A stretch of 64,000 nucleotides of DNA from positions 1 to 64,000 of IMG/VR virus record IMGVR_UViG_3300030328_002400; one strand, given 5' to 3'. This document shows positions 46,958-63,950 of this stretch, piece by piece. Position numbers and translations under genes: made by a program. This stretch comes from a virus. The notes below the pieces were generated by a model that made no database searches, was not told the origin of the DNA, and was given only the letters and a program-made list of their open reading frames with translations. Position 1 is the stretch's first letter, and each line of letters opens with the position of its first letter.

Positions 46958-49900
46958 ATGGCTACCAGAAAAGAAATAGAGGACGCAAAATCTCAGAAAG
47001 CTGCTGCTGCTAAAAAAGATGATAAAGCTCAGAAAGGGCAAGTCAGACTTGAATTCAATCAAGCTCAGACTGGTCTTAATATGGATAGCACTATCAATCA
47101 GGTAAAGACAGGTAGTCTTACTTATGCATTAAATGCTACTGTAGAGAATTTTGATTCTAGTTCTGTAAACTATCAAAACGAACCTGGTAATGAACCATGT
47201 CTCTCCTTTCCTAGTGGGTATGAACTTATAGGAAAACATACTATTCCTGAGAAAAAGAAAAACATATTCTTTCTAACTAATCCTTCTACTGGTGATAGTG
47301 AGATTGGCTTCATGTTTAACAATGATTGTCAATATCAAACACTAGTAAATGCTCCATGTCTAAGATTTACTATTGACAACCCTATTCATAAAGTGGTGCA
47401 TAGGATAACCAACTGTACTACAGAGATATACTGGACTGATGGAATAAATCCAAGAAGATATCTGGACATAGATAATATTCCTTACATTCTTGATCCTAAT
47501 TCCGATCCTGGATGTGATCCTGTATATACTGATAAGTTAGACTGTAATCAACTTAAGATACAGCCTAATTTTGACATTCCATTTGTAGAAATAAATAGCG
47601 TAACAAATGTAGGAAATCTAGTTGCTGGAACCTATCAGTTTGCTGTTCAGTATGCTGATGCAGCTGGTAGTGATTTAACCTCTTACTACTCGGTCACTAA
47701 CCCTACACCTATTGCTGATCCTTTAATAACCACTGTAAACTTCAATTACCCAGTGGGTAAATCTATAGAAGTAAGAGTATCTAATTTAGATCTAACAGGA
47801 CAATACAACTATTTTAACCTAGCTGTAATAAAAACTATAAATGATATTACATCAGTAGAACTAGTAGGAACTTATAATATTACTGAAGCGGATGAAATAA
47901 TTACATACACAGGAGCAGATCAAAGTCCTATTCAGTTATCTATTGCTGATATCTTTGAAAAATATCCATACTATGATGTAGCACAAGATTTAACATCAGC
48001 TCAAGACACTCTGATTTGGAGTAACTTAACTTCGATAGATAGAATAAACTATCAACAGATAGCTAATAATATTACTCTACAATGGGAGACTCATAGGATT
48101 CCTCCGGGAGAGGATTATTCTAATGAATTAAATGCAACCAACTATCGTGGATACATGCGTGATGAAGTGTATGCATTTGAAATAGTATTTCTTTTAAAAA
48201 ACGGAAAACAGACAGATTCATTTCATATACCTGGTCCTGCTAATCTTAATCCTCAACCAGATGTTCCTAATACTAACAACGATTTTATTGGAGAACCGGA
48301 GTACTATGTAGGAAATATAGGATATAGTCCTTACTGGAAGATATATAATAATGCTACAGTGGTTAGTGAATCTACACAAGATACACAAGATCCAAACTAT
48401 AAAGGACCATGGTACTATGGAAATTTTGCGTATTGGGAATCCACAGAGAAATATCCTTGTAATACAGATATATGGGGAGATCTTGCAGACACACCTATCA
48501 GACACCATAAGTTTCCAGATGTTAATGTAAGTCCTATTGTAGAGAATCCTACTATTACCTATGATGGAAATAACATAGTTCCTATTATGCAGGATTCTGA
48601 TGCTATATTCCCTATAGGAGTAAAGATTAATAATGATCAGATAACACAATTAATTACAGATTCTAATCTTACTCAAAACCAAAAAGATGATATAGTAGCT
48701 TTTAAGATAGTAAGAGGAGATCGTGGCACTAACAAATCAGTAATAGCAAAAGGTATACTTAGAAACATGAATAAGTATACTAGAGACGATCAAGACTATT
48801 TCTATCCTAACTATCCATACAACCAAGTTTCTGGAGAAGACGCATTCTTACAAGAAAATAACAATGCATGGAATGTAGACTCTAAATCTTACCTAGTGTA
48901 TTTTCCTGATAAGCGATATGGCTTAACAGGAAATTATATATTTCCTATTCCTATAGCAATAGATGTAGAGGAAGATGAAGGTGTGTATCAATATACAAGC
49001 ATAGTTAACGGAAGACCCACCCAAGCTAAAATCAAACAAAATTGTATTATAGAAGTATGTTCTTTAACAAGACCTATTTCTCTTCAAGGAAGAATGACAA
49101 TAGGACCAGGAGACTTTGATGTTTGGGCATGTGGACATGATTCAAATGGCATTCCTAGAAGTGGTTATCGAGTAGCTTGGGAAAATCCATTTAACGATAT
49201 AAATTTTGATGGCACCATTCCTCAAAGTCTATTTATAAAAGCTCCTGAAGGAATCGGAGCAGGGTTTAGAAGATGTACAATTATTACTCCTATTGATCCA
49301 GAGTTTGAGACTTATACACACGTCTATAGTGGATATGATCCAGGTGATGGTGATGGTGGTGATGCTGGTGGTGAAAGGTATGATCCTTCTCAATCAGGTA
49401 ATGGACATATGTATGACCCAGACATTGATGGGACAGGGATTAATCCACAACCTAAAGTAGAATTGAAAAACATAATGGGAGTGGATTGTGATCTTACTTC
49501 AGTATCATTTGTAAATGCAGGACTTGCAGGTACAGGAAGATATAGACCTGAAAGTTTTGATCCAAATAGCAATTGTCCTGAACCAGTAGAAGGTTTGAAT
49601 TCATATGGTTGTGATACATGTATAAAAACAGAGAATCCAGACAATCTAATTCCTTGGCCTCAGGCTGCATTTGGACAACCTACAAATCCACTTCCTCAGT
49701 TTGCTGTAAATGATAGTGTTTCTCCACAACTTGCATTTCCTATGCCTACAGATGAAACAGAGAACGCTGGTGGTGTGTGGGAACTAAATAACACATTGAC
49801 ACCTGCAGAAACTCATAGAGGGGGATATGATGGTTTTAATTCAAGATACAGCAGGAGATCTTGTTTAAAGTGTGACAGAGATATACCTATTAAACCATTA

Positions 49901-52900
49901 GATGGGGCAGATTATGAAGAAGCAAAAGATGTTTTAGATAAACAAATATTCAATTCACCAGACACATCTTTTGGACAACCATTCTTAGGAAGCGTACTTA
50001 AGTTAGAAAGTGTAATGTTTGGAGGAGGTAAAGCTCACTTTGTAGAAGTAAAAGATAATGCTAAATATAAACTACTATCTAAAGAAGCACAAATAGATGC
50101 TTTAAATAGTGCAGAGAATATAGCAGCAATGGGAGCTGGTAGTGGTTTCGATGCTGGTATAATGTTTACAGTATATCAATCATATCTTACTATATATATA
50201 AATGGTATTACAAGAAAGAACTATGGAATGCAGTTTAATTCTAGAGCTAACTATGATTATCATCTACCTGTTCCTAATAACTCACGTGGAGGAATAAAGC
50301 AAAGAGAAATAGACTTAGCAAGATACTTGATACCAGGAGTGCAGTCTTTCAATAATGGACAACCTCCAATAAATAACTGGAATAGAGAGTCGTCAGTATT
50401 CATCGATACTAAAACTAGTGATGATATTTTGGCACTTCCTCTACCACAAAATACTCCTGAACTTAGACCAAACTTAAATGAACCTTCTACCTTAGTTGAG
50501 TATTCAAGATTTAATATAGGGGAATCAGGAGCATGTGATAAACCAGGATTGGAGCAAGATATTCAAGTGGTTTCCTACTATGCTTCTATGAAAAATATTA
50601 TCCCTAATCAATGGGGTCAGATTAATTCATTCCAAAGAATAGACACAGGTTATCAGAAACTTGTTACAGCCACTGGAACAGATACAGTATTTGGTGGAGA
50701 TGTATTCATATCTAGATTTGCATTTAAAACTAAACTACCATTCTTTATAGATAACAGAGTTAATGGACCAGATGACTCAGATATATTCTTTGATGAAATA
50801 GGAAATGTTGCATATCCTAAATTCTGGCATTCATCTAGATCTATATTGTCTAACTATAGAGTAACTGAAGGTGATGATCAAAACATGTACAACCTTATAT
50901 CTGTTAAGGCACGCAATTTTGATTGTCCAACAGACCCTTCTTTATATCCACAAGGAGGAGGTCAAACTGAGAATCCTATAGCAGGAACTTATAGAACATT
51001 CTATGATGGGTATATGTATTTGTTTGCGTATGGTATTCCTAATTTCTATTGTGAGACAGTATATAATACAGATCTAAGACAAGCCTTTAATACCAATGAA
51101 GGAGACTTCTGGCCTCATGTAAGTGGTGGTATTCCTGATGATTGGTTACAGGAAACAAATGTACCTATTGCTCAAGATAATACATACTACTATAATGTTA
51201 CATTCTCAAAACAAAATAAAGAAAATGTATTTACTCAACTACCTCCAGACTGGATAGAAGATTTATGTTTTACATACTTCCCATTCAGAGCAATCTATTC
51301 AGATACACAGGGAGATAGTGCAGATAACAGAGTAAACAACTGGCTTGTATATAGAGCTCTTTCTTTCCATGACTTCCCACAGAACTATGGTAATCTTACA
51401 TCCTTAGATGGTATGATGGATAGAGCTGTGTTAGCACGTTTTGAAAACAAAGCTTTACTATATAACAAGCTATTAACAATTGATACTAGTAACCCACAAG
51501 CAGCCTACATTGGTAATCCTAGATTATTTGATGGAGCTCCTCCTGTAGATTTTGCAGAAACAGACCTAGGTTATGTAGGGTCTCAACACAAGTTCCTACT
51601 CAAATTACCTTACGGATCAGTTACTGCAGATGCTAAAAGAGGTCAGATATTCTTAATGGCTGGCAGCGAAGTTGTAGATATAACTAAGTTTGGTTCTGGT
51701 GTAAATAGATTTATAACAAATCATTTACCATTTGAGATTCTAGAATACTTCCCAGATGTATATATAGATAATCACTTTAAGGGTATAGGATTACATGGTG
51801 TATATGATAGTAAGTTTGATAGAATTATTGTTACAAAATTAGATTACATTCCACTTAGTGATAAGGTTAAATATAACTCTGAAAGTAAGAAGTTCTTTGT
51901 AGAAACAGTAATAGACGAAGAACTCATAGTACAAGAAGTATTTTTATTTGACAAAGAATATTTCTGTAGTAAATCTTGGACTATGTCGTTTGACTTTAGT
52001 ACAAAAACGTGGATATCTTTTCACTCCTATCTACCTAATTTTTACATAGGAGAAAACAACTTCTACTATTCAGGTATAAATACTTGCTGTACAGAGTTTA
52101 CTGCTATACTAGACACTCCAGATAGAAGTAGAATTGGAGAGGAAGATCCCCTATTAGATGTAATTGCAGGAGAACTTCAACCCCCTGTTCTTATTACAAC
52201 AAGTACAACTACTACTTCTAATCCTTTATTTACAACTACTACAACTACTGCATATGTTCCTGACTGTACAGTTAATATAGTGATATCTGAAGAACTAGAA
52301 TGTGAAATTGATGGAGTGGGATATATTACTGTTCCTAGTCCTACAACTACAACTATATGTGCTAGACCTAGTGGTTTATTAACTGATTCATTTACTGAAG
52401 GATATCAAACTAAAACAGCAGCAGGTCCAGTGGTAGGTACAAATAGTGCACAAGAAGCTTGTGCAATTGGATCTCTGTTAAAAAATGTCTCACCTGGCTC
52501 ACAAGAGATAGTGGGGATAAGCTTCGTATATCAAGCTACTCCAGTTATATCTCAAGATGGTTTAATAGGAAGCTCGGTATATTTTGGAGACAGTTCAGAC
52601 TGTACACGTGTTGCTGATGGATGGTATACTAGAGAAGCTGATGATTACACTAGAGCTATATATGTTGAAGATGGTGTAATAAGAGATGATATAGATTGTG
52701 ACTGTAATACACTTACAACTACTACTACTACGTACACTGGAGGAATAAACGAGTGTTGTGGATTCATTATTAACAATGATAATGCAGAGGCATATATATG
52801 GAATAACGCAAGTGTTATTAACTTTGGTAACTTAATAAACATTCCAGGTTATACAGGTGGTAAGTTAGCTTTAGGTCCAAATACATTATATGTATGGGAT

Positions 52901-53728
52901 GGTAGTTTAGCATTTAAGAAATGGACTATAAACACAACTAACTGGAGTGCAGTACAAGAGTTAGATATAACACCAGCTGGATTTAATACAACAGCTGGAG
53001 TGGTAGTTAAAGATGATAATACATTAATAGCACTAGACACAACTGCCGGTAATGTAGTGGAGATAGATACTACATCAGCAGCAGTAACAGTTAAGTTTGC
53101 TTTACCAGCTGGTTATACATGGACAACAAATCTACTATATACCACCGCAGGTAAACTAATAACAATAGGAAAAAACACTGCAGCAGCAGAACACCACTAT
53201 TTTGAGTGGGATTATGATAATGCAACAGTAACACCAGAGGTAGATATAACAATCACTGCTGCACAATGGGATCACACAAAACCAGTTTCAGCTATTTACG
53301 AGTGTGAGTGTAATACAACAATAATTGCAGGTTCAACTACATGTGACTATGCATATTTCCAAGTAACTCCATTAACTCCATTTGATGTAGTTTTCCTACA
53401 GGATGCATCTAGTAGTTGTTTACCTATACGTCCTACAGTTTGGGAAACTCGAGAAGTAAGTAACATCACTCAACAAGCTTCTTGTACTAGTCCAGCTGGT
53501 GGACCTACAACCACTACTACAACTACCACTGCATTTGTTACTACTACAACTACTACTAGTATATATCCATGCTATAAGTGGGAAGTAACAGGACCTATTG
53601 TAGTGTGGTATGATGACTGTAATGGAATACCTCAGAGTTTATCAGTAGCTAGTGGAGAAACAAAACAATATTGCACAAACGTTAATGTTGGTGCAGAAGG
53701 ATCATTAATAGGAGCATGTGATATATAG
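46958..53728 (+). CDS. tail stabilization (muzzle, P22 gp10-like) protein with C-terminal adhesin-like extension
   Basis: GLNMDS, IYWTDGINPRR, GYMRDEVYAFEIVF, RHHKFP, FGGDVFISRF, WISFHSYLP; last ~570 aa are Thr-linked modules. Confidence 0.75.
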   Translation: MATRKEIEDAKSQKAAAAKKDDKAQKGQVRLEFNQAQTGLNMDSTINQVKTGSLTYALNATVENFDSSSVNYQNEPGNEPCLSFPSGYELIGKHTIPEKKKNIFFLTNPSTGDSEIGFMFNNDCQYQTLVNAPCLRFTIDNPIHKVVHRITNCTTEIYWTDGINPRRYLDIDNIPYILDPNSDPGCDPVYTDKLDCNQLKIQPNFDIPFVEINSVTNVGNLVAGTYQFAVQYADAAGSDLTSYYSVTNPTPIADPLITTVNFNYPVGKSIEVRVSNLDLTGQYNYFNLAVIKTINDITSVELVGTYNITEADEIITYTGADQSPIQLSIADIFEKYPYYDVAQDLTSAQDTLIWSNLTSIDRINYQQIANNITLQWETHRIPPGEDYSNELNATNYRGYMRDEVYAFEIVFLLKNGKQTDSFHIPGPANLNPQPDVPNTNNDFIGEPEYYVGNIGYSPYWKIYNNATVVSESTQDTQDPNYKGPWYYGNFAYWESTEKYPCNTDIWGDLADTPIRHHKFPDVNVSPIVENPTITYDGNNIVPIMQDSDAIFPIGVKINNDQITQLITDSNLTQNQKDDIVAFKIVRGDRGTNKSVIAKGILRNMNKYTRDDQDYFYPNYPYNQVSGEDAFLQENNNAWNVDSKSYLVYFPDKRYGLTGNYIFPIPIAIDVEEDEGVYQYTSIVNGRPTQAKIKQNCIIEVCSLTRPISLQGRMTIGPGDFDVWACGHDSNGIPRSGYRVAWENPFNDINFDGTIPQSLFIKAPEGIGAGFRRCTIITPIDPEFETYTHVYSGYDPGDGDGGDAGGERYDPSQSGNGHMYDPDIDGTGINPQPKVELKNIMGVDCDLTSVSFVNAGLAGTGRYRPESFDPNSNCPEPVEGLNSYGCDTCIKTENPDNLIPWPQAAFGQPTNPLPQFAVNDSVSPQLAFPMPTDETENAGGVWELNNTLTPAETHRGGYDGFNSRYSRRSCLKCDRDIPIKPLDGADYEEAKDVLDKQIFNSPDTSFGQPFLGSVLKLESVMFGGGKAHFVEVKDNAKYKLLSKEAQIDALNSAENIAAMGAGSGFDAGIMFTVYQSYLTIYINGITRKNYGMQFNSRANYDYHLPVPNNSRGGIKQREIDLARYLIPGVQSFNNGQPPINNWNRESSVFIDTKTSDDILALPLPQNTPELRPNLNEPSTLVEYSRFNIGESGACDKPGLEQDIQVVSYYASMKNIIPNQWGQINSFQRIDTGYQKLVTATGTDTVFGGDVFISRFAFKTKLPFFIDNRVNGPDDSDIFFDEIGNVAYPKFWHSSRSILSNYRVTEGDDQNMYNLISVKARNFDCPTDPSLYPQGGGQTENPIAGTYRTFYDGYMYLFAYGIPNFYCETVYNTDLRQAFNTNEGDFWPHVSGGIPDDWLQETNVPIAQDNTYYYNVTFSKQNKENVFTQLPPDWIEDLCFTYFPFRAIYSDTQGDSADNRVNNWLVYRALSFHDFPQNYGNLTSLDGMMDRAVLARFENKALLYNKLLTIDTSNPQAAYIGNPRLFDGAPPVDFAETDLGYVGSQHKFLLKLPYGSVTADAKRGQIFLMAGSEVVDITKFGSGVNRFITNHLPFEILEYFPDVYIDNHFKGIGLHGVYDSKFDRIIVTKLDYIPLSDKVKYNSESKKFFVETVIDEELIVQEVFLFDKEYFCSKSWTMSFDFSTKTWISFHSYLPNFYIGENNFYYSGINTCCTEFTAILDTPDRSRIGEEDPLLDVIAGELQPPVLITTSTTTTSNPLFTTTTTTAYVPDCTVNIVISEELECEIDGVGYITVPSPTTTTICARPSGLLTDSFTEGYQTKTAAGPVVGTNSAQEACAIGSLLKNVSPGSQEIVGISFVYQATPVISQDGLIGSSVYFGDSSDCTRVADGWYTREADDYTRAIYVEDGVIRDDIDCDCNTLTTTTTTYTGGINECCGFIINNDNAEAYIWNNASVINFGNLINIPGYTGGKLALGPNTLYVWDGSLAFKKWTINTTNWSAVQELDITPAGFNTTAGVVVKDDNTLIALDTTAGNVVEIDTTSAAVTVKFALPAGYTWTTNLLYTTAGKLITIGKNTAAAEHHYFEWDYDNATVTPEVDITITAAQWDHTKPVSAIYECECNTTIIAGSTTCDYAYFQVTPLTPFDVVFLQDASSSCLPIRPTVWETREVSNITQQASCTSPAGGPTTTTTTTTAFVTTTTTTSIYPCYKWEVTGPIVVWYDDCNGIPQSLSVASGETKQYCTNVNVGAEGSLIGACDI

Positions 53729-53730
53729 AT

Positions 53731-54597
53731 ATGACTAAGATTATAAACATAAAAATACTAGCTGCAAGTCCTAACACAGGACCATTTGACATATTTGATG
53801 ATCAGAGCAATGTTATAGACACCTCTGTTTCGTTAAGTAAATTGGCACACGGGGTTTCTTATACAGTGGATCAAAGTGTATTAGTAATAGAACTTAAAGC
53901 TCATGGAGATTGTGAGTACAGTAAATTTATTACTCTTGAAGATATACCCGATGCAACATATTCGAATGCTGTATTTAAACCACTAAGAACAGGTTGTTTG
54001 TGGACTCATTTGAGAAACGATACTTTGTATAATTATTACTACGGAGATATTGCTCCTTATATAATTGAATATCCTTTTTCATATAAGTATCATGATCAGA
54101 TATTACAGAACATAAAAGACTATAGCAAGGTGTATACATATATACCATCCGTATTAGGAGAATTTGATGCTAATAGTAAAATACAAACAGACGATAAATA
54201 CTTTAATAAAGCTGTCCTGTATAATGGTCAGCAATCGACAGGTATACTGGAGCTTGTTCCTAAACCTATGAATAACTTAAGTGAATATCTCCAATACCCT
54301 ATATTAAATACTGATAGTAAAACTATTACTTTTGCAAAGACCGATAGTTTCTATCAGTATAATACTTTCTGGGCATTACAAAAAGATGACCAGGTACCTC
54401 TATTTAAAACATCCTGTGAATCCAAATCAATAGATAAGGTGGTGAATCAGGACAACATGAACTATGGTGACTTATCATTTAAGAAGTCACAACTAAGAGC
54501 TAAGAATGTAAAGGTGAGACATATATTAGACAACTCCTCTACTACACATATTGTGAGTCAGTTTATTGTAGCACCAGCACAAATATCATATAAATAA
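53731..54597 (+). CDS. GPFD module fused to probable C-terminal part of the tail stabilization protein
   Basis: GPFDIFDD N-terminus; LWTH..YYG..IIEYP..ILQN..FNKAVLYNGQQSTG. Confidence 0.6.
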   Translation: MTKIINIKILAASPNTGPFDIFDDQSNVIDTSVSLSKLAHGVSYTVDQSVLVIELKAHGDCEYSKFITLEDIPDATYSNAVFKPLRTGCLWTHLRNDTLYNYYYGDIAPYIIEYPFSYKYHDQILQNIKDYSKVYTYIPSVLGEFDANSKIQTDDKYFNKAVLYNGQQSTGILELVPKPMNNLSEYLQYPILNTDSKTITFAKTDSFYQYNTFWALQKDDQVPLFKTSCESKSIDKVVNQDNMNYGDLSFKKSQLRAKNVKVRHILDNSSTTHIVSQFIVAPAQISYK

Positions 54598-57500
54598 TGG
54601 CATTAACACCAGGCAAAGCAAAGAAAATGTTAGACGATGGAACTGTCCATGGGAGAGGTCTGACTGATAAGCAGAAGAGATACTTCGGTGCTATAGCTGG
54701 AGGTGCAACACCTATGAAAAAGATTAACGGTGGTTGGTTAGATAAGTATGCAATGGGAGGCACACTTCCTGGTGCATCCGGTATGATGTATGCACGTACA
54801 AATACCCCAGAACCTTTGTATACTCAATCAGAAATGAAAGCTCAGAAGGGTACCAGAGAATTTCCTAGAGAATTTCCTAGAGAGATAGCTATAGATAATA
54901 CAGCTGTTAGATCTATTAAAATTCCACCTCTAGAAAAGCCTGCAAAAAAACCACCGAAGCCTGATTACACACCTCTTCAGACATCCCCACCTAAGGTGTT
55001 ACCAATGTTTAGTCAGGATAACAGAACTTATGAACAGAGAAAAGCAGACGAACAAAGGTTTGCAGATGCTACATCAACAAACTTACCAAAAGGAGCAGCA
55101 GCTCTTACATATCTTGCTAATCCTTTTAGATTAATAGGTGATCTATATAATAAAACTGTACAACCAGCAGCAACGAGTCTGTTTTCTACTTCTACACTAC
55201 AACCTGCTACAGGAGATTTCTGGACTAGTGATGAGGTGGCAAAACAACTTAACTTAAGAAACGTTCAAAGACAAACAGGTCAGATATCCTATGGAGATCA
55301 ACTGTATGGAAACCTTATGCAAGGACTTCCTGAAACAGGATGGGCTGGACTAAATCTTTTAGGAGGTAGAATTATTCAAGGTGGTCTCCAGTATCTTCCT
55401 GGTAAATCTGTTATTCTCAATACGTTAAAAAGAATTCCAGGTTACAATTATGTGAGAAACACATACAATTATTTTAAACGACCTTTGGGTGATGCTGTTC
55501 CTATAGGTAGAGAGATATCTATTCCATCTTTGCTTACTAGAGGTAAAACTCCACCGAATAAACTTCTTACTAATCCTAAGGTGGATGCAGATAATTTTAT
55601 GCAACAATGGACCAATTCTCCAGGGTTTAATGAAAGATTTTATTCTCAGATTAAGCCATATAATCCTTTACCTAATGTTCGACCAGAGACCATTAAAAGA
55701 ACACTTGCAGCTAGACATAGAGAATTACAAGCCTTAGAATCGGAGTTACTTACATATTCAGAGGCAGGACTACATAAAGCTCTTCCTAGAGGTAAGTATC
55801 TTCAACAACAAGTTGATGATCTTACAATGGAAATAAATCAGATATATAATGTGTACTATCCAAAACTAGCAGCGGACAATATGAAATTAATACAGTCTGG
55901 TAAGTTTCCTACTGTGTATAGTAGTACAGGATTTACGCCTGGATCAGGTGGGACATATTATATACCCCATGCTGGTAAACCTTTAAATACTTTGGATAAT
56001 ATATTTGATACTACTAATCAAATAGGTAATAAGAGTGTTGTAAATACTGGTGGTGGTGCTTCAAGAAATAGCGAGATGTTAACAGGTATACATGAAACTC
56101 TTGGTCATGCTAGTAATGTAGGTGGAAGAGCTTTAGGCATTGAGACAAAATCGTTAATTAAAGGAGCACTTAAACCAAATCCAAGAATATCAAAGGGAAC
56201 CAGTGAGCAAATTAAATCGTTTCTTGGTCCAGATGCAACTTTTGATGACTGGGCAAAATATTTACAAGAGCCTACAGAAATGGTTGCGAGAGTGATGGAG
56301 TTGAGAAGGCAATACATTAACCCAAAATACTGGGGAACTTCTAAACAATATGATATACCAGATAAGTTAATTGACCAAATGTTTAGAGATGGACTTTCTG
56401 GTAAAAGTAAAATAACTCCAGACTTCTTTAGAGTAATAGATAAAAAAGGATTAAAGAAATTAATGCAATCATTATATGCTACAGTACCAATAGCTATAGG
56501 AGCTGATGGATTATTAGAGTATGAAACTCCTAGTTCAGAGATACAACTACCGAAATATAAAGATGGTGGATGGCTCGATAAGTATGAAGTGATAGAAGAT
56601 GACATGGGACAGTTAACCAACCCAGGAAAGATAACTAAAATAAACTCCCCCAATATAACTATGAAGGGAGTAGACTTTCCTGTGCTAGGAATATCTGACA
56701 CTGGTGATAAGAAGATGATGCAACCAGGTAAAGATTACAAGTTTGATGGTAACTCTGTTACAGAGTATCCTATGGCTCAAGGTGGTATGAATATACCTCT
56801 TAAAACGATTAATAAGTATGGCGAACTAGAAAGACTAACTTACCCAAGTAGTGTATGGAAAGACAAAGAAGGTAATCCTCAAGAAGTATCTCTTTTAGAT
56901 GAAGTAGTTGTTGATTATAAAGGTCCTATAGCATTAGCTAAAGAACAAATGGAAGAGCATGGAATAGCTGATTTTCTAAAAGCAGGTTATGTTAAAGGTA
57001 AGTCTGAAAGAGCATATAATAATATAGTCCCTGAAGGTTATGGAAACGTAGCAAAAAATCTTGATAGAGTCAGAAGATATAGAGGAGATCTAGGACGTGA
57101 TCCAGAAGCTTTGTGGCATTCCGGCCCAAAAGATAATAAGAGACACTACACTATACCTAACCGAGAAGATGCATTTAGACTATATCTAGGAATGCCACAA
57201 GTTAATAATAGTTTTTCTGTAAGTGATTACAGACCGGGTGACTCAAAAGATAAGAGTATGGTTTATTTAAAACCTACCTACTTTAATGATGAAAAGATTA
57301 GACAGGCATTAGTAGATCAGTATTATAGAGAAGTAGATGATGAAGATATTAAACTAGGTGATAAGGATATTGGTAATGAAAGAGGACTACCAAGAGGACA
57401 GTGGCAAGGAGATGGTACACCATGGCCTTCGCATGATAACTCTTTAGGAGATTTTACATTTCATATGGGAGAGGATGAAAAAGGAACTTACATATCTATA

Positions 57501-60500
57501 TATGATATATGGGACTTGAATCCATTCCAACCGGGAAAAGGATCATCTGTAAATAAAGCAGCTGATCAACTGTTGGAATATGTTACCTCATTAGGGAAAA
57601 AAGTTACTTCAAAATCAGAAGTATCTGACATATTTGAAGCAGGAAAACCCTTTGAAGTATATGAAAGAATATATATTGACCCAGAAACCAGGAAAATATT
57701 ACCTCAAGCACAATGGGGTGGAATAATCAAACAAGGAATGAAAAAACTTCCTAAATATTTAAAAAAATGGTTAGGTAAAACAGATGATGTAGTACCAGGA
57801 CCAACCTCAGAAGTAAATTTTATAGATAATGTGCATAAGCAGCAACTTGATGATGTAAATAGAATAGTTGATTATGAATTGTATAATGCTAAAAATCCAC
57901 CTACACTTCAAGATTTGGTCAATCATTATAATAAACAGAGTGGTGATGTTACTAGTATATATAGATATGGTTTTGATAGAGATAGGATAGGTGGTACTTG
58001 GTATTCTTCTGACTTAGGAGATCCATTAAGATATCAGCAATATGGAAGAGGTGATGGAGTTTTTAAAGCAGATGTACCTAATGATATTTTAAGAGAAAGT
58101 TATAGAGGTTTGGTAAATAATGCAGATGCAGCGGCAGGTAAGATACCAGGTCTTGATCCAAGATTTTTTCAAAATTCTTTAACAAACTTTAAAGAATTTA
58201 AACTAACTGAAGGAATAGCTTCAGTATTTGCAGATGAAAAATTTGGAAAAAAGACTATTGAAGAATATATAGATTATTTAAAATCACTTAAAAAACAAGG
58301 AGGATCTATAATGGCTCAAGATGGTTTAGATTTAAGTGGTCAACATCAAAAAGATTTTTTAAAGAATTGGTTACACTCTCCTATGGGTCAACAATTATTA
58401 AGTAATAGCTATGATGGAAATGAAAATAAGACAGATTTTTTAACATTCAGAAGAGGTGATGTTGCATTAGATAATGTTACAATTGAAACAGGTCTTGGTG
58501 ATTTTATGGGTAGATATAACAAAAGACCACATCTAATACAAATAAATGAAAATTACTTAGACAAGTTTGCATACTCACCTGGTAAAGAACCTAAAGATGT
58601 ATTACTACATGAACTATCACATGCTCAAGACTATGATGCAGGATTGGGTTTTGGTAAGTTGAATATGCCGTTATCAGATGTTAAGTTTATAGAAGGTCTA
58701 ACTAAGAATAAAATAAAAGAAGATAAAAAAAGTTATAATCTTAGTAGAGATGAAATTAAAGACTTAAGGTATTATGGAAGTCCTACAGAGGTAAGAGCAA
58801 GACTTAATGCTCTTAGATATTTTTATGAAACAGATTTAGGTGGTGGTAAGAATGATGAAGGGTTACCAAGTATTTTTAATTCAGAGGTAACACCTGAGAT
58901 GCAAGAAACTATGAAATCACATGGTCAGTATAGAGACTTAAAAAAAGTATATACTGATGATGAAATCTTACAACTTTTAAATACTATATCTTATCAAGAT
59001 TCTGATTTTAATCAGGAAGCAGATAAGTTTATATATGCAAGGTATGGTAAGGAACTACCTAAAGCTCAACAGGGTTTCTTCAGAAATCTTATAAAGAAGG
59101 GTGGTCCAAAAATTATGAAGTATCTTGATAATTTACTAGGCAAAACAGATGAGGTAGTAGAGGTTGCACCAGCAGCTGTTAAAAACTATGAAATGTTACC
59201 TATTAATAAAATAGATTACCCCACACACTATGGTACTACAGATACACCAGGTGATGAGGTAATAACAAATGCTTTAGATATACTCAAGGCACAAGGAAAG
59301 TATACTGATGACGTAGGGTTTCAGATAAAAGATTTAGTAGGTGAGAATATACAGTACTTAGGTAATCAAGGTGGTAGAACTATTGTTAATGTTCCATTAC
59401 CAAATGGGAAGAGTCAAATGTTCTATAAATCTACTGACTTAGCAGGTAAAGGTACAGAGGGTCTTTGGCAACCCTATGCAGGTCATGCAAATATATTAGA
59501 TTTTCCAGGACATGGAAAAGTTGAAAATTGGTTTATTAAAGATAGTGGATATAAAAATTGGTATGATAGTAAATCATTTAGAGACATAGCTGGTAACTTA
59601 GATAGAATAGCAGCAGAACAAGGATGGGATATGTCTGAACAAATACTAAAAAGTAAATTGAAACATGGTGGAGATTTACCAAAAGCTCAATGGGGTACAT
59701 TTTTTAAAACCTTTTTAAAAAAAGCTCCTAAGCACGCTCCTAAGTATATAGATAATGTAGTCAAACCACAAAACTTTGATGACTTATTAAAATTGCCAGA
59801 TGATGAGTTTGCAAAGTTTACTACTATGAGTAAAGATACATGGAAGCTGATAGGTAATCAAAAGCCTGATTATCAAAAAAGGCTGATGAATAACTATAAG
59901 AATATGTTTACTCCTAGTGATGATGCTGTCAATATAATTAAGAAAAGTAAAGAAGAATTAATAAGTTATTACAGAACACCAGAATATAGAACTAGATTAA
60001 CAGAAGGTTTAAAAATATCAGATACAGAAGCAACTAAGTATATAGATGATATGATAAAAGAAATGGATGAAGCTAATATTTTATTTAGTAATAAAAAATT
60101 ACCTATGGACGGCTTAGCTCAGGGTGCATCAGGAAGTCCTAGAAGCACCGTTACATTTACTGGTGCAATAAATGATATGAATGCTAATCAGTTAAGAACA
60201 TTAGCATTGCATGAGTTTGGTCATGTGTCTTCATATGGTAAAAATTCTAATTTATTTAAGACATTTAAAGCTCCAAAGATTAGACCACGTACTAGGGACA
60301 CATGGACTAAAGGAGGAAATAATGATCTGATACAATATTTTGATAATCCAGATGAGGTTAGACAAAGAGGTATAGTTGCCTTAGATTATATGAAAAAGAA
60401 TAATTTGTCTATTGATGATTTTATGAATATAAGTTATGATGATATAGTTAGAGGTACTTGGGATAAAAAAATACCAAAAGATATATTAGAACTTAGACAA

Positions 60501-61427
60501 TACTATGATCCTAAACAAATGAAAGAATATCTTAAAAAAATGTATACAATAGCAGTACCAGTAGGAGCATTTACTATGGGGGAGATGCAAGATGGAGGAG
60601 AACAAGTTCTTACTCAAGAAGACTGGGATAAGCTACCTATTATACAAATGGAAAAAGATAATACAAATGTAGAAATACCTACTCTTCCATCTAGATATGA
60701 GGTTATAGGAAAAGAAATAATGGAATCTAATAAAGTTACAGGAATTACTCCTGAATTATTATTTTCTCAAGCATGGGTAGAATCAAACTTAGACCCATCT
60801 ATAAAAAATGATAAAGGTTATATGGGATTAGGGCAGATTGGGCAAGGTGTTATAGAAGATTATAAAAAGGCTAATAAAGTTTCTGAATTAGATCCATTTA
60901 ATCCTCAAGATAATTACAATGTTCAGAACTGGTATATGAATAGGATATATAATTCTGAATGGGTTGATAAACCAAATCAATTAGATGACGTAAGATTGGC
61001 AAAAACTCTAGCAGGGTATAGCTTAGGGCCTAAGAAAGCTAGAGAATGGTTTACTAAATTTAAAAACGCAGGAAAAGATATCTATAATTCATTTGACTGG
61101 TTAGATGATTTACCTGATGAGACTAGTAAATATATTAAGATGATATTGCGGGGAGAAAATACTCAAAGAAGACCACGTGTCCAAGAGAATATCCAAGATG
61201 CTTTAATTAATGATGAGTATAAATCAATAAGAGATCTTTACTTTAAACGTAAAGGTGGTGAAAACAAAATAATTAAAATATATAGTGACTATATAAATGG
61301 AAAAGTAGTAGATGAACAAAGTGAAAAAATATATGATAAACTAAACCGGATATATTTAAAAGATGCAAGAAAGGAAGGGATGAGCGTTCCTAATTATATT
61401 ATGACTCATCTAGCAGATGATTCTTAA
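54597..61427 (+). CDS. giant polyvalent putative cargo protein (3 zincin-like HExxH domains, possible ART, SLT lytic transglycosylase)
   Basis: HETLGH/PTEMVAR, HELSH/PTEVRAR, HEFGH/PDEVRQR; ES..GYMGLGQ..AGYSLGP SLT motifs; repeated xxxGG linkers. Confidence 0.75.
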   Translation: MALTPGKAKKMLDDGTVHGRGLTDKQKRYFGAIAGGATPMKKINGGWLDKYAMGGTLPGASGMMYARTNTPEPLYTQSEMKAQKGTREFPREFPREIAIDNTAVRSIKIPPLEKPAKKPPKPDYTPLQTSPPKVLPMFSQDNRTYEQRKADEQRFADATSTNLPKGAAALTYLANPFRLIGDLYNKTVQPAATSLFSTSTLQPATGDFWTSDEVAKQLNLRNVQRQTGQISYGDQLYGNLMQGLPETGWAGLNLLGGRIIQGGLQYLPGKSVILNTLKRIPGYNYVRNTYNYFKRPLGDAVPIGREISIPSLLTRGKTPPNKLLTNPKVDADNFMQQWTNSPGFNERFYSQIKPYNPLPNVRPETIKRTLAARHRELQALESELLTYSEAGLHKALPRGKYLQQQVDDLTMEINQIYNVYYPKLAADNMKLIQSGKFPTVYSSTGFTPGSGGTYYIPHAGKPLNTLDNIFDTTNQIGNKSVVNTGGGASRNSEMLTGIHETLGHASNVGGRALGIETKSLIKGALKPNPRISKGTSEQIKSFLGPDATFDDWAKYLQEPTEMVARVMELRRQYINPKYWGTSKQYDIPDKLIDQMFRDGLSGKSKITPDFFRVIDKKGLKKLMQSLYATVPIAIGADGLLEYETPSSEIQLPKYKDGGWLDKYEVIEDDMGQLTNPGKITKINSPNITMKGVDFPVLGISDTGDKKMMQPGKDYKFDGNSVTEYPMAQGGMNIPLKTINKYGELERLTYPSSVWKDKEGNPQEVSLLDEVVVDYKGPIALAKEQMEEHGIADFLKAGYVKGKSERAYNNIVPEGYGNVAKNLDRVRRYRGDLGRDPEALWHSGPKDNKRHYTIPNREDAFRLYLGMPQVNNSFSVSDYRPGDSKDKSMVYLKPTYFNDEKIRQALVDQYYREVDDEDIKLGDKDIGNERGLPRGQWQGDGTPWPSHDNSLGDFTFHMGEDEKGTYISIYDIWDLNPFQPGKGSSVNKAADQLLEYVTSLGKKVTSKSEVSDIFEAGKPFEVYERIYIDPETRKILPQAQWGGIIKQGMKKLPKYLKKWLGKTDDVVPGPTSEVNFIDNVHKQQLDDVNRIVDYELYNAKNPPTLQDLVNHYNKQSGDVTSIYRYGFDRDRIGGTWYSSDLGDPLRYQQYGRGDGVFKADVPNDILRESYRGLVNNADAAAGKIPGLDPRFFQNSLTNFKEFKLTEGIASVFADEKFGKKTIEEYIDYLKSLKKQGGSIMAQDGLDLSGQHQKDFLKNWLHSPMGQQLLSNSYDGNENKTDFLTFRRGDVALDNVTIETGLGDFMGRYNKRPHLIQINENYLDKFAYSPGKEPKDVLLHELSHAQDYDAGLGFGKLNMPLSDVKFIEGLTKNKIKEDKKSYNLSRDEIKDLRYYGSPTEVRARLNALRYFYETDLGGGKNDEGLPSIFNSEVTPEMQETMKSHGQYRDLKKVYTDDEILQLLNTISYQDSDFNQEADKFIYARYGKELPKAQQGFFRNLIKKGGPKIMKYLDNLLGKTDEVVEVAPAAVKNYEMLPINKIDYPTHYGTTDTPGDEVITNALDILKAQGKYTDDVGFQIKDLVGENIQYLGNQGGRTIVNVPLPNGKSQMFYKSTDLAGKGTEGLWQPYAGHANILDFPGHGKVENWFIKDSGYKNWYDSKSFRDIAGNLDRIAAEQGWDMSEQILKSKLKHGGDLPKAQWGTFFKTFLKKAPKHAPKYIDNVVKPQNFDDLLKLPDDEFAKFTTMSKDTWKLIGNQKPDYQKRLMNNYKNMFTPSDDAVNIIKKSKEELISYYRTPEYRTRLTEGLKISDTEATKYIDDMIKEMDEANILFSNKKLPMDGLAQGASGSPRSTVTFTGAINDMNANQLRTLALHEFGHVSSYGKNSNLFKTFKAPKIRPRTRDTWTKGGNNDLIQYFDNPDEVRQRGIVALDYMKKNNLSIDDFMNISYDDIVRGTWDKKIPKDILELRQYYDPKQMKEYLKKMYTIAVPVGAFTMGEMQDGGEQVLTQEDWDKLPIIQMEKDNTNVEIPTLPSRYEVIGKEIMESNKVTGITPELLFSQAWVESNLDPSIKNDKGYMGLGQIGQGVIEDYKKANKVSELDPFNPQDNYNVQNWYMNRIYNSEWVDKPNQLDDVRLAKTLAGYSLGPKKAREWFTKFKNAGKDIYNSFDWLDDLPDETSKYIKMILRGENTQRRPRVQENIQDALINDEYKSIRDLYFKRKGGENKIIKIYSDYINGKVVDEQSEKIYDKLNRIYLKDARKEGMSVPNYIMTHLADDS
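54855..54884 (+). repeat. 12-bp in-frame tandem repeat
   Basis: AGAGAATTTCCT x2.5 encoding REFPREFPRE. Confidence 0.7.
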
Positions 61428-61478
61428 ACCTTAAATATTAGTGAATCTCCTTAATTATTTGTATATTAATATTATAAT

Positions 61479-63950
61479 ATGAGCAAAGTGAATTTAAACA
61501 AAATAAGTGTAAAACAACAAGGCGGACAGATGATTCCACAACAACCTGGAATGAGAAATCAAACACAACAAGTTGATCCTAGAGTACAACAAGTTAGTGA
61601 AATGATTTCTATGTCTATGAATGATGGAAAAGATATTGTTGATGTTATATTAGAATTGACTCAACAAGAAGTAGATCAGCAACTTATAGCTCAAGCACTT
61701 ATGATGGGGGGAATGCAACAAGAAGATGTTCAAACTGTATTTGAACAAGTGGCAGTAAAAGCTGAACCACCTGGTCCTTCCAGCCCATCTGAAGTAAATG
61801 CTAATCCACAATTATTAGCAAGAAATGAAGAACTAGAATCTCAACCAGTAGATGTATTAGAAGGTATAGAAACTGATCCTTTTGCAAAGTCAGGTATAGA
61901 AATTAAAAAAGAAAATAGAGGAAAGTTTACTAAATGGGCTAAAGCACGTGGTATGGGCGTACAGGAAGCTGCTAGAAAGGTTTTAGCTAATAAAGATAAG
62001 TATCCTCCATCTGTAGTAAAGATGGCTAATTTTGCACGTAATGCAGCTAAATGGAAAAAGGATGAAGGTGGTGAAATGGACTATACAGAACAAATGAGAT
62101 TAAAAGAAGGCTCATATAATAAAGGTAGAGAACATATTTTAGATCCTAGATTTAGACAAGATGGTGGTGGTGTTGATGATATTAAGGGGGTGCTTAATAA
62201 TCTAGCCGCTAGTACATATGCAGGTTATCAGGCGGTTGAACCTTATATAACTGTACAAGATGATGATGCCCAATGGCAAAAATATATAAAAAATCATCTG
62301 AATCCAGTATATTGGGCAGATAACCTTCTACAAATATCTAGTATACCTGCTAATTTGATTAGAGAAGGTATAGAAGGAATAGGTGGAAAGGGAGATGGAA
62401 AATTTAATGCGGGTGATATTTTACCAGATCTATATAATACTACCATTATGGATGAGAATGCAAACAATAAACTGGTTTCTGAAACATTAGGTATAGATAA
62501 TTTCGTGGGTGCTACATTAATAGATCTGGCATTAGATCCTACAAGTTATGTTGGTCTAGGAATACTTAAAAATCTAGGTACAAAAGGTTTAGCAAAACTT
62601 TCCAGAAAATTTCCACAACTGGTTAAACACATTCCTCAATTAGCAAAACAAGATGGTGGTGACATAAGAACTCCCAGCTTTTTAGAATGGTATGAAGATG
62701 GCGGAGATACAGATGTAAGTCAAAACTATATTAATAATGAAACAACTACTACTGGTGGTGGAATAAATTTAAGTGATTGGAATCAAAGAGCATTATTAGC
62801 TGGATCAACTAGTAATAATATATTATCAGATGCTATTTTTACTGCATCAGATATTTATAATGAATTATTTTCTGGAGAAAGAGGAATTAGTGGTTTACAG
62901 AAAGGAGCTTTGCGTGGATGGGATGAGAAAGCCAATTATAATAAAATGGTAGCACCTTTATATTATAATTGGGATCTTAATGTAGATACTTCTGATGAAA
63001 ATGTTAATGCTTTAGCAGCTTATTATAAAAAGGTTGGTGAAGATACAATAGCACAAACAGAAGCTAATCAAGCAGCAGCAGATGCTGAGATAGCAGCAAC
63101 ATATGAAGGAATGAATTTAGATGGAATAGACTTAGCTAGTATCCTTAGTGGAAAACCTGTTGTAACTGCTAAGACTAAGCAAGAATCTATAAACTCTATA
63201 GATAAAGATGGTGATGGTATTCCAGATATGATTGATATTGATGGAGGAGATGGTTCAGGTATAGCACCTAAACAATGGGGAGGTGACTTTAATCCATATG
63301 ATCCAGATTTTGATATAGCTGATTACTTACAACAGTTTACTCAAACAGATTATGTGAGAGATACTCAAAATGTAGCTGATGCACAATTACAAAAAAGATT
63401 TCCTGATTTAGGTCTTACACCTCAACAAGAACAAAATCAACAATTTGTAGATAATTTAGAAACTCAAGCTGTAAATCAAAATATTGACAATGAAGAAGAG
63501 GTGGTGGTTGAACCTACTGCTGAAGAGTTATGGGATGCAGTTAATAAACCAGAACTAGAAGCATCAAATAAACTAGAAGGAACATTGAATAGAGTTATGG
63601 ATAGTAATGTAATGAGAGGGTTTAGTAGTTTATCAGATTCTGCAGTTAAAGCAGCTGGATTTTTTAATAGATTATATGAACAAGAAGAGGCTGATAAAGC
63701 TTATGAGGATAGAGCAGACGCTCTTATGGCAGATAATCTCGTTGCTACTGTAACTAGTGATGCAGGTGATTTAGGTAATTGGAAAACAAATTGGGGATCA
63801 TTTCGTAGTACAAAAGATAGAGTTACTGGTTATGATGAATTTTTTGAACAACCAAATCTGAGAGTTGCTCAAAGAGGATTAGAAATAGAAGTAGATCAAA
63901 ATTTATTAACGGAATTGATAGCAGCAGGTGCTGATATAGAAATATTATAA
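61479..63950 (+). CDS. putative virion cargo/ejection protein
   Basis: Same xxxGG motifs; GIEIKKENRGKF..ANFARNA domain; DKDGDGIPDMIDID Ca-binding-type loop; hydrophobic/amphipathic segment. Confidence 0.6.
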   Translation: MSKVNLNKISVKQQGGQMIPQQPGMRNQTQQVDPRVQQVSEMISMSMNDGKDIVDVILELTQQEVDQQLIAQALMMGGMQQEDVQTVFEQVAVKAEPPGPSSPSEVNANPQLLARNEELESQPVDVLEGIETDPFAKSGIEIKKENRGKFTKWAKARGMGVQEAARKVLANKDKYPPSVVKMANFARNAAKWKKDEGGEMDYTEQMRLKEGSYNKGREHILDPRFRQDGGGVDDIKGVLNNLAASTYAGYQAVEPYITVQDDDAQWQKYIKNHLNPVYWADNLLQISSIPANLIREGIEGIGGKGDGKFNAGDILPDLYNTTIMDENANNKLVSETLGIDNFVGATLIDLALDPTSYVGLGILKNLGTKGLAKLSRKFPQLVKHIPQLAKQDGGDIRTPSFLEWYEDGGDTDVSQNYINNETTTTGGGINLSDWNQRALLAGSTSNNILSDAIFTASDIYNELFSGERGISGLQKGALRGWDEKANYNKMVAPLYYNWDLNVDTSDENVNALAAYYKKVGEDTIAQTEANQAAADAEIAATYEGMNLDGIDLASILSGKPVVTAKTKQESINSIDKDGDGIPDMIDIDGGDGSGIAPKQWGGDFNPYDPDFDIADYLQQFTQTDYVRDTQNVADAQLQKRFPDLGLTPQQEQNQQFVDNLETQAVNQNIDNEEEVVVEPTAEELWDAVNKPELEASNKLEGTLNRVMDSNVMRGFSSLSDSAVKAAGFFNRLYEQEEADKAYEDRADALMADNLVATVTSDAGDLGNWKTNWGSFRSTKDRVTGYDEFFEQPNLRVAQRGLEIEVDQNLLTELIAAGADIEIL

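Follow-up and report, generated by a model that had tools for sequence, protein, structure and literature searches.

In the crAss-like phage crAss001, the gene of the muzzle protein (gp44) is followed by the genes of cargo proteins C1 and C2 and then by the RNA-polymerase block (PMC10172136). C1 (gp45), encoded right after the muzzle protein, is mostly unresolved save for short segments ordered on the portal and tail rings, and the crAss001 atlas resolved only these docked pieces, namely residues 214-245, which lie on the tail rings, and residues 425-552, which lie on the portal wing (Protein Data Bank entry 7QOG and others; Bayfield et al., 2023, PMC10172136). The polyvalent proteins (Iyer, Burroughs, Anand, de Souza and Aravind, 2017, PMC5512222) combine disparate enzyme domains in one polypeptide, including several zincin-like metallopeptidase (MPTase) domains of the HExxxH and HExxH-xx-D variants and a peptidoglycan-cleaving SLT domain, belong to the phage virion/ejection gene block and have modules that are shuffled between relatives. 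Here we analyze P0001, a 2276-amino acid (aa) modular protein that shares these features and belongs to what we call the WLDKY family. It is encoded on the plus strand at 54597..61427 of the window, i.e., the first 64 kb of IMG/VR record IMGVR_UViG_3300030328_002400, a linear viral record of 99,647 bp (~88% complete) that comes from a crAss-like phage.

P0001 combines at least two disparate activities (SLT, M91 and further modules, with two separate folds) and contains zincin-like MPTase hub domains (three motifs, M91/SprT-like matches and weak fold matches). Unlike in the polyvalent proteins of Iyer et al., a short peptide brackets every module of P0001 and forms the termini in its relatives, on a scaffold of ~200 aa whose gene has a fixed place behind that of the muzzle protein; in the searched text of Iyer et al. 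(2017), neither a linker nor a glycine or cleavage-site motif is described, and crAss members are absent (PMC5512222). A sequence-only reading of the window had pointed to about 20 xxxGG/AQxG motifs in P0001 and in the adjacent 823-aa protein P0002 (61479..63950, plus strand). As judged from the aligned sequences, these motifs are remnants of one composite peptide, KKxN-GGWLDKY-xxGG-xxPKAQxG, and the junctions that they form mark exchangeable module slots in a protein family that is both large and previously undescribed.

The composite junction peptide

The motifs are less degraded in syntenic relatives, where they read GGWLDK[YF] and PKAQxG(G), often joined as PKAQDGGWLDKFxxGG. P0001 retains pieces of the composite, e.g., KKINGGWLDKYAMGG, LPKYKDGGWLDKY, KHGG-DLPKAQWG and KKQGG-SIMAQDG, and many of its copies are degenerate. 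Across 134 WLDKY-type instances in 55 distinct proteins, the residues are W in 100%, L in 98%, D in 91%, K in 92% and Y or F in 81% and 18%, respectively, with KKxNGG before and xxGG after. More than half of these instances (73/134) lie at protein termini, 20 within the first 12 aa (MAKWLDKY…) and 53 within the last 9 aa (…NFTNYNKPTKGGWLDKYN-stop). A stand-alone SLT protein (P0244) begins with MGWLDKYQEGG, and in another crAss lineage the post-muzzle protein opens with MAIKKKYQEGG followed by SLT and repeats GGKKKYQEGG internally. The two GGWLDKY copies of P0001, the only ones in the genome, differ at synonymous positions, and therefore selection acts on the peptide rather than on the DNA.

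When back-translated, the GGWLDKY pattern is found at more than 118 viral loci compared to ~27 expected by chance (our own estimate), and many of these loci hold 2-4 copies within one open reading frame (ORF). Matches in bacterial genomes are approximately at the chance level (roughly 270 expected), with a single phage-type context (L151). A conserved ~349-aa protein of Chitinophagaceae metagenome-assembled genomes (L152-L261) contains an exact GGWLDKY in a fixed, unrelated context (…FEYAGAAGGWLDKYGYPFAKGR…); this match is coincidental and a pitfall for motif searches. No relevant paper came up when full texts in the literature were searched for GGWLDKY, WLDKY and NFTNYN; as far as this search shows, the family-wide junction and terminal peptide is previously undescribed.

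All of the approximately 20 motifs listed in the sequence-only reading are indeed present at the positions given there. P0001 contains KINGG and KYAMGG (aa 41-55), KAQKG (aa 81-85), KYKDGG (nucleotide (nt) 56553), MAQGG (56772), QAQWGG (57702), KKQGG with MAQDG (58290), KAQQG (59055-75), LKHGG with KAQWG (59658-96), MQDGG (60585) and KRKGG (61245). The translation of P0002, on the same strand, contains KQQGG (61512-26), AKSG (61884-95), KDEGG (62058-72), RQDGG (62154-68), KQDGG (62646-60), WYEDGG (62688-705), KQWGG (63270-84) and AQRG (63867-78).

The frequency of the motifs is far above that in both shuffled sequences and the rest of the phage proteome. In P0001, AQxG occurs 6 times against 0.42 expected and [KRQ]x?[DEQNKWH]GG 8 times against 1.9, neither count being reached in 2000 shuffles (0/2000 each); in P0002, the latter pattern occurs 5 times against 0.63 (1/2000). 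A loose regular expression for the entire motif set gives 16 against 6.1 in P0001 (3/2000) and 9 against 2.1 in P0002 (1/2000). The density of [KRQ]x?[DEQNKWH]GG is 3.5-6.1 per 1000 aa in the two proteins vs 0.18 in the remaining ~27,800 aa of the phage, i.e., 20-30 times that of the rest of the 99.6-kb record. Could these patterns simply reflect chance, in Gly/Lys/Gln-rich sequences from which motifs were picked post hoc? The regular expressions were indeed written after the motifs had been seen, and GG by itself shows just a slight excess in P0001 (20 copies, with 14.8 expected; reached in 157/2000 shuffles). Nevertheless, the AQxG excess and the two GGWLDKY copies in P0001, the occurrence of the same peptides in more than 100 viral loci with several copies per protein, and the coincidence of the motifs with the domain edges in AlphaFold models make this explanation extremely improbable, and the enrichment is independently supported because the same motifs recur in relatives.

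Not all cargo proteins have the motif. It is dense in P0001 and P0002; beyond the window, the same record encodes ORFs of 935, 1088, 4616 and 1973 aa, the first of which has two weak copies, whereas the other three, although within the cargo block, lack the motif.

Domain edges, module exchange and the minimal scaffold

The claim that unrelated domains lie between the motifs is borne out by both structure prediction and the ends of homology stretches. The AlphaFold model, which covers aa 1200-1760 of P0001, contains two confident domains, aa 1244-1464 (predicted local distance difference test (pLDDT) 80-96) and aa 1531-1689 (71-96). The pLDDT is below 50 at aa 1234-1243 (QGGSIMAQDG), ranges from 32 to 63 per 10-residue block across aa 1465-1530, which hold LPKAQQG and IKKGG, and falls to ~50 from aa 1690 on (HGGDLPKAQWG). 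Thus, the modelled motifs sit in predicted disordered linkers at domain edges, as had been anticipated. In a library of 1.8 billion representative proteins, matches to aa 1001-2200 of P0001 start or stop at aa ~1030-1043, 1239-1251, 1492-1505, 1684-1728 and 1986-2003. The endpoints of BLAST alignments lie within 15 aa of a motif site in 52 of 74 cases, with a randomisation P of only 0.087 for endpoints that are non-independent; the assignment of motifs to domain edges is therefore based on the AlphaFold model and the library matches instead.

In the library search, P0001 modules are also found alone or at other positions in other proteins; in one relative (L001), the M91 module precedes module 2, the reverse of the order in P0001. 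These observations support the proposed plug-in cassette, with enzyme modules delimited by a repeated motif in a protein whose gene lies in the cargo block directly behind the muzzle gene. The codon third-position G+C content (GC3) of the modules is 0.10-0.19 vs 0.11-0.16 in neighboring cargo genes and so gives no compositional signal of recent module import. In another relative (L007), the gene is split (715+538 aa), and because the break lies inside a module rather than at a motif, this split is uninformative on cleavage.

The members of the family to which P0001 belongs are 198-2276 aa long, and their genes directly follow a split muzzle gene in crAss-like phages from the environment. Restricted to proteins about as long as the 204-aa minimal member, a search retrieved 502 relatives, all without a name or Pfam domain. 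In the family alignment, the shortest members (198-300 aa) define a scaffold of ~200 aa, for which there is no Pfam or PHROG model. It starts with [Met-x-x]WLDKY, optionally behind a helical or zinc-ribbon cap, continues with a conserved ~90-aa stretch that is predicted to be disordered (NYSPAWGG, MGGSLPGAxGFTYART, KKTxASAQNG) and ends with a ~65-aa beta domain followed by LDQLxNFTNYNxxxxGGWLDKY-stop. In the AlphaFold model of the 204-aa member, the beta domain is the sole folded part (pLDDT 72-80), and pLDDT stays below 50 in the ~130 residues that are most conserved, a combination of conservation and low confidence that would be expected if these segments become ordered only on a partner.

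Two types of N-terminal cap precede the first WLDKY, a helical one as in P0001 (MAKKLTSxKAKEILHDKSVHGxPLTDKQRRFFGAIAGG) and a zinc-ribbon-like one with CxC…CxxC (CTCGHSWNKSDSSKKDxxVCHICGKDN). Such caps are seen in relatives, e.g., at L073:5199-5918:-, L035:11408-13756:+ and L030:1709-2611:-, and many members are capless. A tblastn search of P0001 against 50,697 phage records gave no match. The sole match of the minimal member in the same records is to the beta domain in a hypothetical protein of the cyanophage Leptolyngbya phage Lbo-JY46 (PP438436.1, 82614-82814; 51% identity over 65 aa); as only the beta domain matched, no cultured model was found in that collection.

Layout of P0001 and its gene neighborhood

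P0001 can be laid out on this scaffold as cap and core (aa 1-85), module 1 inserted after AQKG, and WLDKY with the beta domain (aa 651-730), with six further modules following YPMAQGG in place of the canonical C-terminal tail. The Pfam matches are SLT (E 2e-10) and Peptidase_M91 (PF14891; 25.7 bits vs a cut-off of 25); besides these, there are at least five further independent homology modules. Three zincin motifs are intact, HETLGH (HExxxH), HELSH with a D three residues on, and HEFGH, with M91/SprT-like matches.

All the features that follow are on the plus strand. The first full junction motif, KKINGGWLDKYAMGG (aa 41-55; 54717..54761), comes after the N-terminal helical cap and is conserved in relatives. 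In the family alignment, MKAQKG (aa 80-85; 54834..54851) corresponds to ASAQNG of the core, and module 1 (aa 86-650; 54852..56546), delineated by a homology stretch and containing HETLGH (nt 56091-56108, zincin-like), is inserted behind it. The second full motif, LPKYKDGGWLDKY (aa 651-663; 56547..56585), identified by translation and in relatives, leads into the small beta domain that is conserved in the core of the family (aa 664-725; 56586..56771), supported by the family alignment and the model of the minimal member. Behind it lies the YPMAQGG junction (aa 724-730; 56766..56786), which we denote slot 3 and which coincides with homology ends. Module 2 (aa 731-1034; 56787..57698), the one that sits behind the M91 module in L001, has no assigned function. 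It is followed by the LPQAQWGG junction (aa 1035-1042; 57699..57722), where library stretches end, and by module 3 (aa 1043-1231; 57723..58289), also without an assigned function, which lies within library stretches spanning aa 1030-1243.

The KKQGGSIMAQDG junction (aa 1232-1243; 58290..58325), most of it in the low-pLDDT segment noted above, precedes module 4 (58326..59054), an M91-like zincin that is folded at aa 1244-1464 and contains HELSH (nt 58608-58622); a fold search with this module gave only weak minimal-zincin matches (selecase, E 0.27). The LPKAQQG ... IKKGG junction (aa 1487-1503; 59055..59105), with a basic amphipathic helix, lies within the low-confidence linker. Module 5 (aa 1531-1689; 59187..59663) is a folded alpha/beta domain with no assigned function, which had no match in the fold search and is found alone in proteins of 155-270 aa elsewhere. 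Next come the KHGGDLPKAQWG junction (aa 1689-1700; 59661..59696), where the model confidence drops, and module 6 (aa 1701-1995; 59697..60581), which is delineated by library stretches and contains HEFGH (nt 60210-60224). The EMQDGG junction (aa 1996-2001; 60582..60599), at library stretch ends, separates it from module 7 (60600..61244), a lytic transglycosylase by Pfam, PHROG and library matches (Pfam SLT at aa 2046-2162). The last junction, KRKGG (aa 2217-2221; 61245..61259), stands before a non-canonical C-terminal tail (…VPNYIMTHLADDS) that replaces the NFTNYN..GGWLDKY end of the family. This tail (61260-61424, …YDKLNRIYLKDARKEGMSVPNYIMTHLADDS) is shared with a metagenomic SLT-bearing protein (P0146) and appears to be a second kind of C-terminus in the family. 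In addition, modules 3, 5 and 6 open right after LPxAQxG with similar basic amphipathic stretches (IIKQGMKKLPKYLKKWLGKTDDVV, FFRNLIKKGGPKIMKYLDNLLGKTDEVV and TFFKTFLKKAPKHAPKYIDNVV, at 57723-57790, 59076-59140 and 59697-59765, respectively), of which the two within the modelled region, those of modules 5 and 6, are predicted to be helical with low confidence.

Upstream of P0001, the muzzle protein ORF (46958-53728, plus strand) is identified by a Pfam crAss_MUZ match (E 1.6e-36), and the 288-aa ORF 3' of it (53731-54597, plus strand) matches the C-terminal end of the muzzle-type PHROG 15100, the coverage being limited to the last ~190 positions. Because the 288-aa ORF covers only the end of this PHROG, the muzzle gene appears to be split in two. 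This division is kept in 19/19 syntenic IMG/VR relatives, in all of which the muzzle gene and the ~288-aa gene are followed by a variable protein of 683-1584 aa, the counterpart of P0001, and a ~1200-aa Gly-rich protein; a homolog of the 288-aa protein adjoins 77 of 102 motif loci. The gene order in the phage (muzzle, 288 aa, P0001, P0002, giant ORFs) mirrors that in crAss001. The 4616-aa ORF (record positions 70095-83945), which may be a fused polyprotein of the type that Drobysheva et al. call 'likely cleaved', and then the 1973-aa ORF occupy the position of the crAss RNA-polymerase block; neither is enriched in GG/AQxG. From its place after the muzzle and 288-aa genes and before the genes that resemble C1 and the RNA-polymerase block, and from a PHROG match to 'internal virion protein with endolysin domain', P0001 is probably packaged in the virion and ejected with the DNA.

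Docking hinges, cleavage sites or passive linkers

Among the described systems, crAss001 C1 (NC_049977 41987-44515) offers a parallel to the punctuation of P0001, as it has its own Gly-Gly punctuation. A[FY]GG occurs in gp45 4 times against 0.10 expected (0/5000 shuffles), at aa 207-210, 330-333, 425-428 and 560-563, in addition to AFAEGGG at 260-265, and these copies bracket both segments that are ordered by cryo-electron microscopy (cryo-EM). Residues 425-430, AFGGWL (AFGGWLNTQGG in full), start the portal-bound segment and, being inside one continuously modelled segment, are uncut in the mature virion. None of the word stems 'cleav', 'proteoly' and 'truncat' occurs in the crAss001 structure paper as searched (PMC10172136), and the published mass spectrometry of the crAss001 virion used a single excised band. 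P0002 shows local similarity to C1 over ~60 aa (aa 130-192 vs gp45 364-423; E 2e-4 in a small database). C1 differs from P0001 in having no enzyme modules and A-F/Y rather than K-x-Q-x before GG, and neither sequence nor fold comparisons gave P0001 a significant match to it outside the short GGWL/NFxxN tail, the only part covered when the family C-tail is compared with gp45 372-432 (hhalign E 0.025, probability 1.9%).

We tentatively favor, at somewhat below an even chance, the reading that the junctions are uncut hinge and docking pieces of a plug-in polyvalent ejected protein. P0001 would be a virion-packaged, ejected cargo protein of the polyvalent type on a conserved scaffold, with enzyme modules inserted at fixed slots, each with a copy or a remnant of the junction peptide at its edges. 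The uncut junctions would serve as flexible hinges that turn the 255-kDa chain into beads on a string, which could be stored and threaded through the portal and tail, and the conserved W-L-D-K-Y and P-K-A-Q side chains might dock on a virion partner, e.g., the portal wing or the tail-barrel rings, much as AFGGWL starts the portal-bound segment of C1 and A[FY]GG brackets its ordered segments. The same junctions would be sites of module exchange between phages. We infer both the docking of the P0001 junctions and their lack of cleavage, and a hinge/docking role limited to first cargo proteins appears to fit best.

Several observations weigh against this preference. P0001 itself lacks the canonical C-terminal GGWLDKY tail, so that a terminal tag is not obligatory, and the RNA-polymerase-block giants have no motif yet are presumably packaged; because of the latter, a universal cargo packaging tag, one of the two roles initially proposed for the motif, is unsupported. 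The conservation of A-Q-x-G and K-x-Q-x-G-G fits protease recognition equally well, in a protein that has three intact zincin motifs. The record is ~88% complete, and a divergent protease could be missed. Homology of the family beta domain to the portal-binding domain of C1 is also unsupported, given the hhalign probability above; Foldseek found nothing at E<=0.001, and the top VIA-align score (Z 5.0) went to unrelated cupin-like chains, 7qog being absent from the list.

Cleavage, the other role proposed initially, would have the junctions cut to release effectors, in the capsid or after injection, by the zincin modules of the protein itself or by a host protease. The zincin motifs and the M91 match speak for such processing, and so does the placement of the motifs at domain edges, in linkers that are disordered and accessible. 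Iyer et al. (2017) predict that polyvalent proteins process themselves by means of such MPTase domains and cite the cleavage of P1 DdrB (PMC5512222), Drobysheva et al. make their suggestion of cleavage for fused crAss RNA polymerase polyproteins, and the stand-alone proteins that begin with M-x-x-WLDKY are what a cut at GG|W would give. However, 33 of the 55 family members have 3-14 motifs and no HExxH or HExxxH, and where WLDKY makes up the last 5-9 residues (53/134), a cut would free only a pentapeptide. Double-glycine leaders (C39) and adenain, African swine fever virus pS273R and Ulp1-like proteases (clan CE) resemble the present case in that Gly-Gly ends a short conserved peptide, but the suggested search for a C39 or Ulp1-like protease elsewhere in the genome yielded none: at E<=1, the 99.6-kb, ~88% complete record has no match to C39 (PF03412), which was matched in control genomes, or to C48/Ulp1-like proteases (PF02902; adenain PF00770 was not searched). 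Moreover, the consensus is KKxNGGWLDKY / PKAQxG and not LSxxELxxIxGG or (M/I/L)xGG-x, and rather than being limited to an N-terminal leader of 15-30 aa ending in GG, the motifs of the P0001 family are also internal and C-terminal. The T4 capsid-targeting sequence and the inner-body processing of phiKZ/SPN3US provide a conceptual precedent for address followed by cleavage, with a short peptide on head-packed, ejected proteins; by analogy with the T4 sequence, which is removed after loading, WLDKY could be a targeting piece, with AQxG or xxGG scissile. These systems differ in that they depend on a prohead protease (S77 or similar) whose sites are LxE or S/A/G-x-E, none matched here (S77 and S78, PF03420 and PF04586: no match at E<=1), and in that the P0001-family motif is internal, repeated and also C-terminal. 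The lack of C39, C48, S78 and S77 matches, the terminal motifs, including the one that opens the stand-alone SLT protein, the zincin-less members and the location of the gp45 GGWL inside a modelled segment together lean against Gly-Gly processing. We consider it unlikely, though possible, that the junctions are processing sites cut by the zincins in cis or by a host protease.

Alternatively, the junctions could be passive linkers or recombination scars, i.e., domain-capping, helix-breaking segments that travel with the modules and neither bind a specific partner nor serve as cut sites; they would recur through common descent of the linkers and because the sites tolerate insertion. This would account for modules that bring their own C-terminal KxxGG or AQxG into different downstream contexts, for insertions at a few fixed slots, for the drop in motif density from 17 per 1000 aa in short family members to 7.5 in long ones and for the degenerate copies in P0001. 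Several observations stand against it. W, L, D, K and Y hardly vary in proteins that share 35-60% identity elsewhere, and the copies differ synonymously, which points to selection on particular side chains; the motif is retained at extreme termini, where a linker is needless; and the ~90 conserved residues of the scaffold predicted to be disordered argue for a partner. We regard this explanation as quite unlikely.

A bolder form of the docking hypothesis, possible albeit rather doubtful, is that WLDKY/PKAQxG(G) is a portable address-and-hinge code by which the flanked domains are held on a portal/tail conveyor and co-ejected; in a variant of this scheme, zincins in cis would cut at AQxG after injection. 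Encapsulin cargo-loading peptides, i.e., short Gly-flanked disordered terminal peptides that are portable and dock cargo enzymes inside an HK97-fold shell, provide an analogy only, as there is no sequence similarity and the putative partner here is more likely the portal or tail than the capsid.

These findings bear on the loading, ordering and ejection of the ~5 MDa of protein inside crassviruses. With a short conserved peptide on both sides of every payload module and at the protein ends in hundreds of relatives, a minimal scaffold defined at 200 aa, and a comparable A[FY]GG punctuation that frames the ordered segments of C1 in crAss001, the question can be put to the test by mutagenesis, mass spectrometry of virions and cryo-EM. 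The analysis also defines a large unannotated family and catalogs its exchangeable effector modules without an assigned function, which are probably injected by these phages. If true, the address-and-hinge code would explain how hundreds of phages plug different enzymes into one scaffold and would provide, for the phage order most abundant in the gut and in marine waters, a tag by which cargo loading could be programmed.

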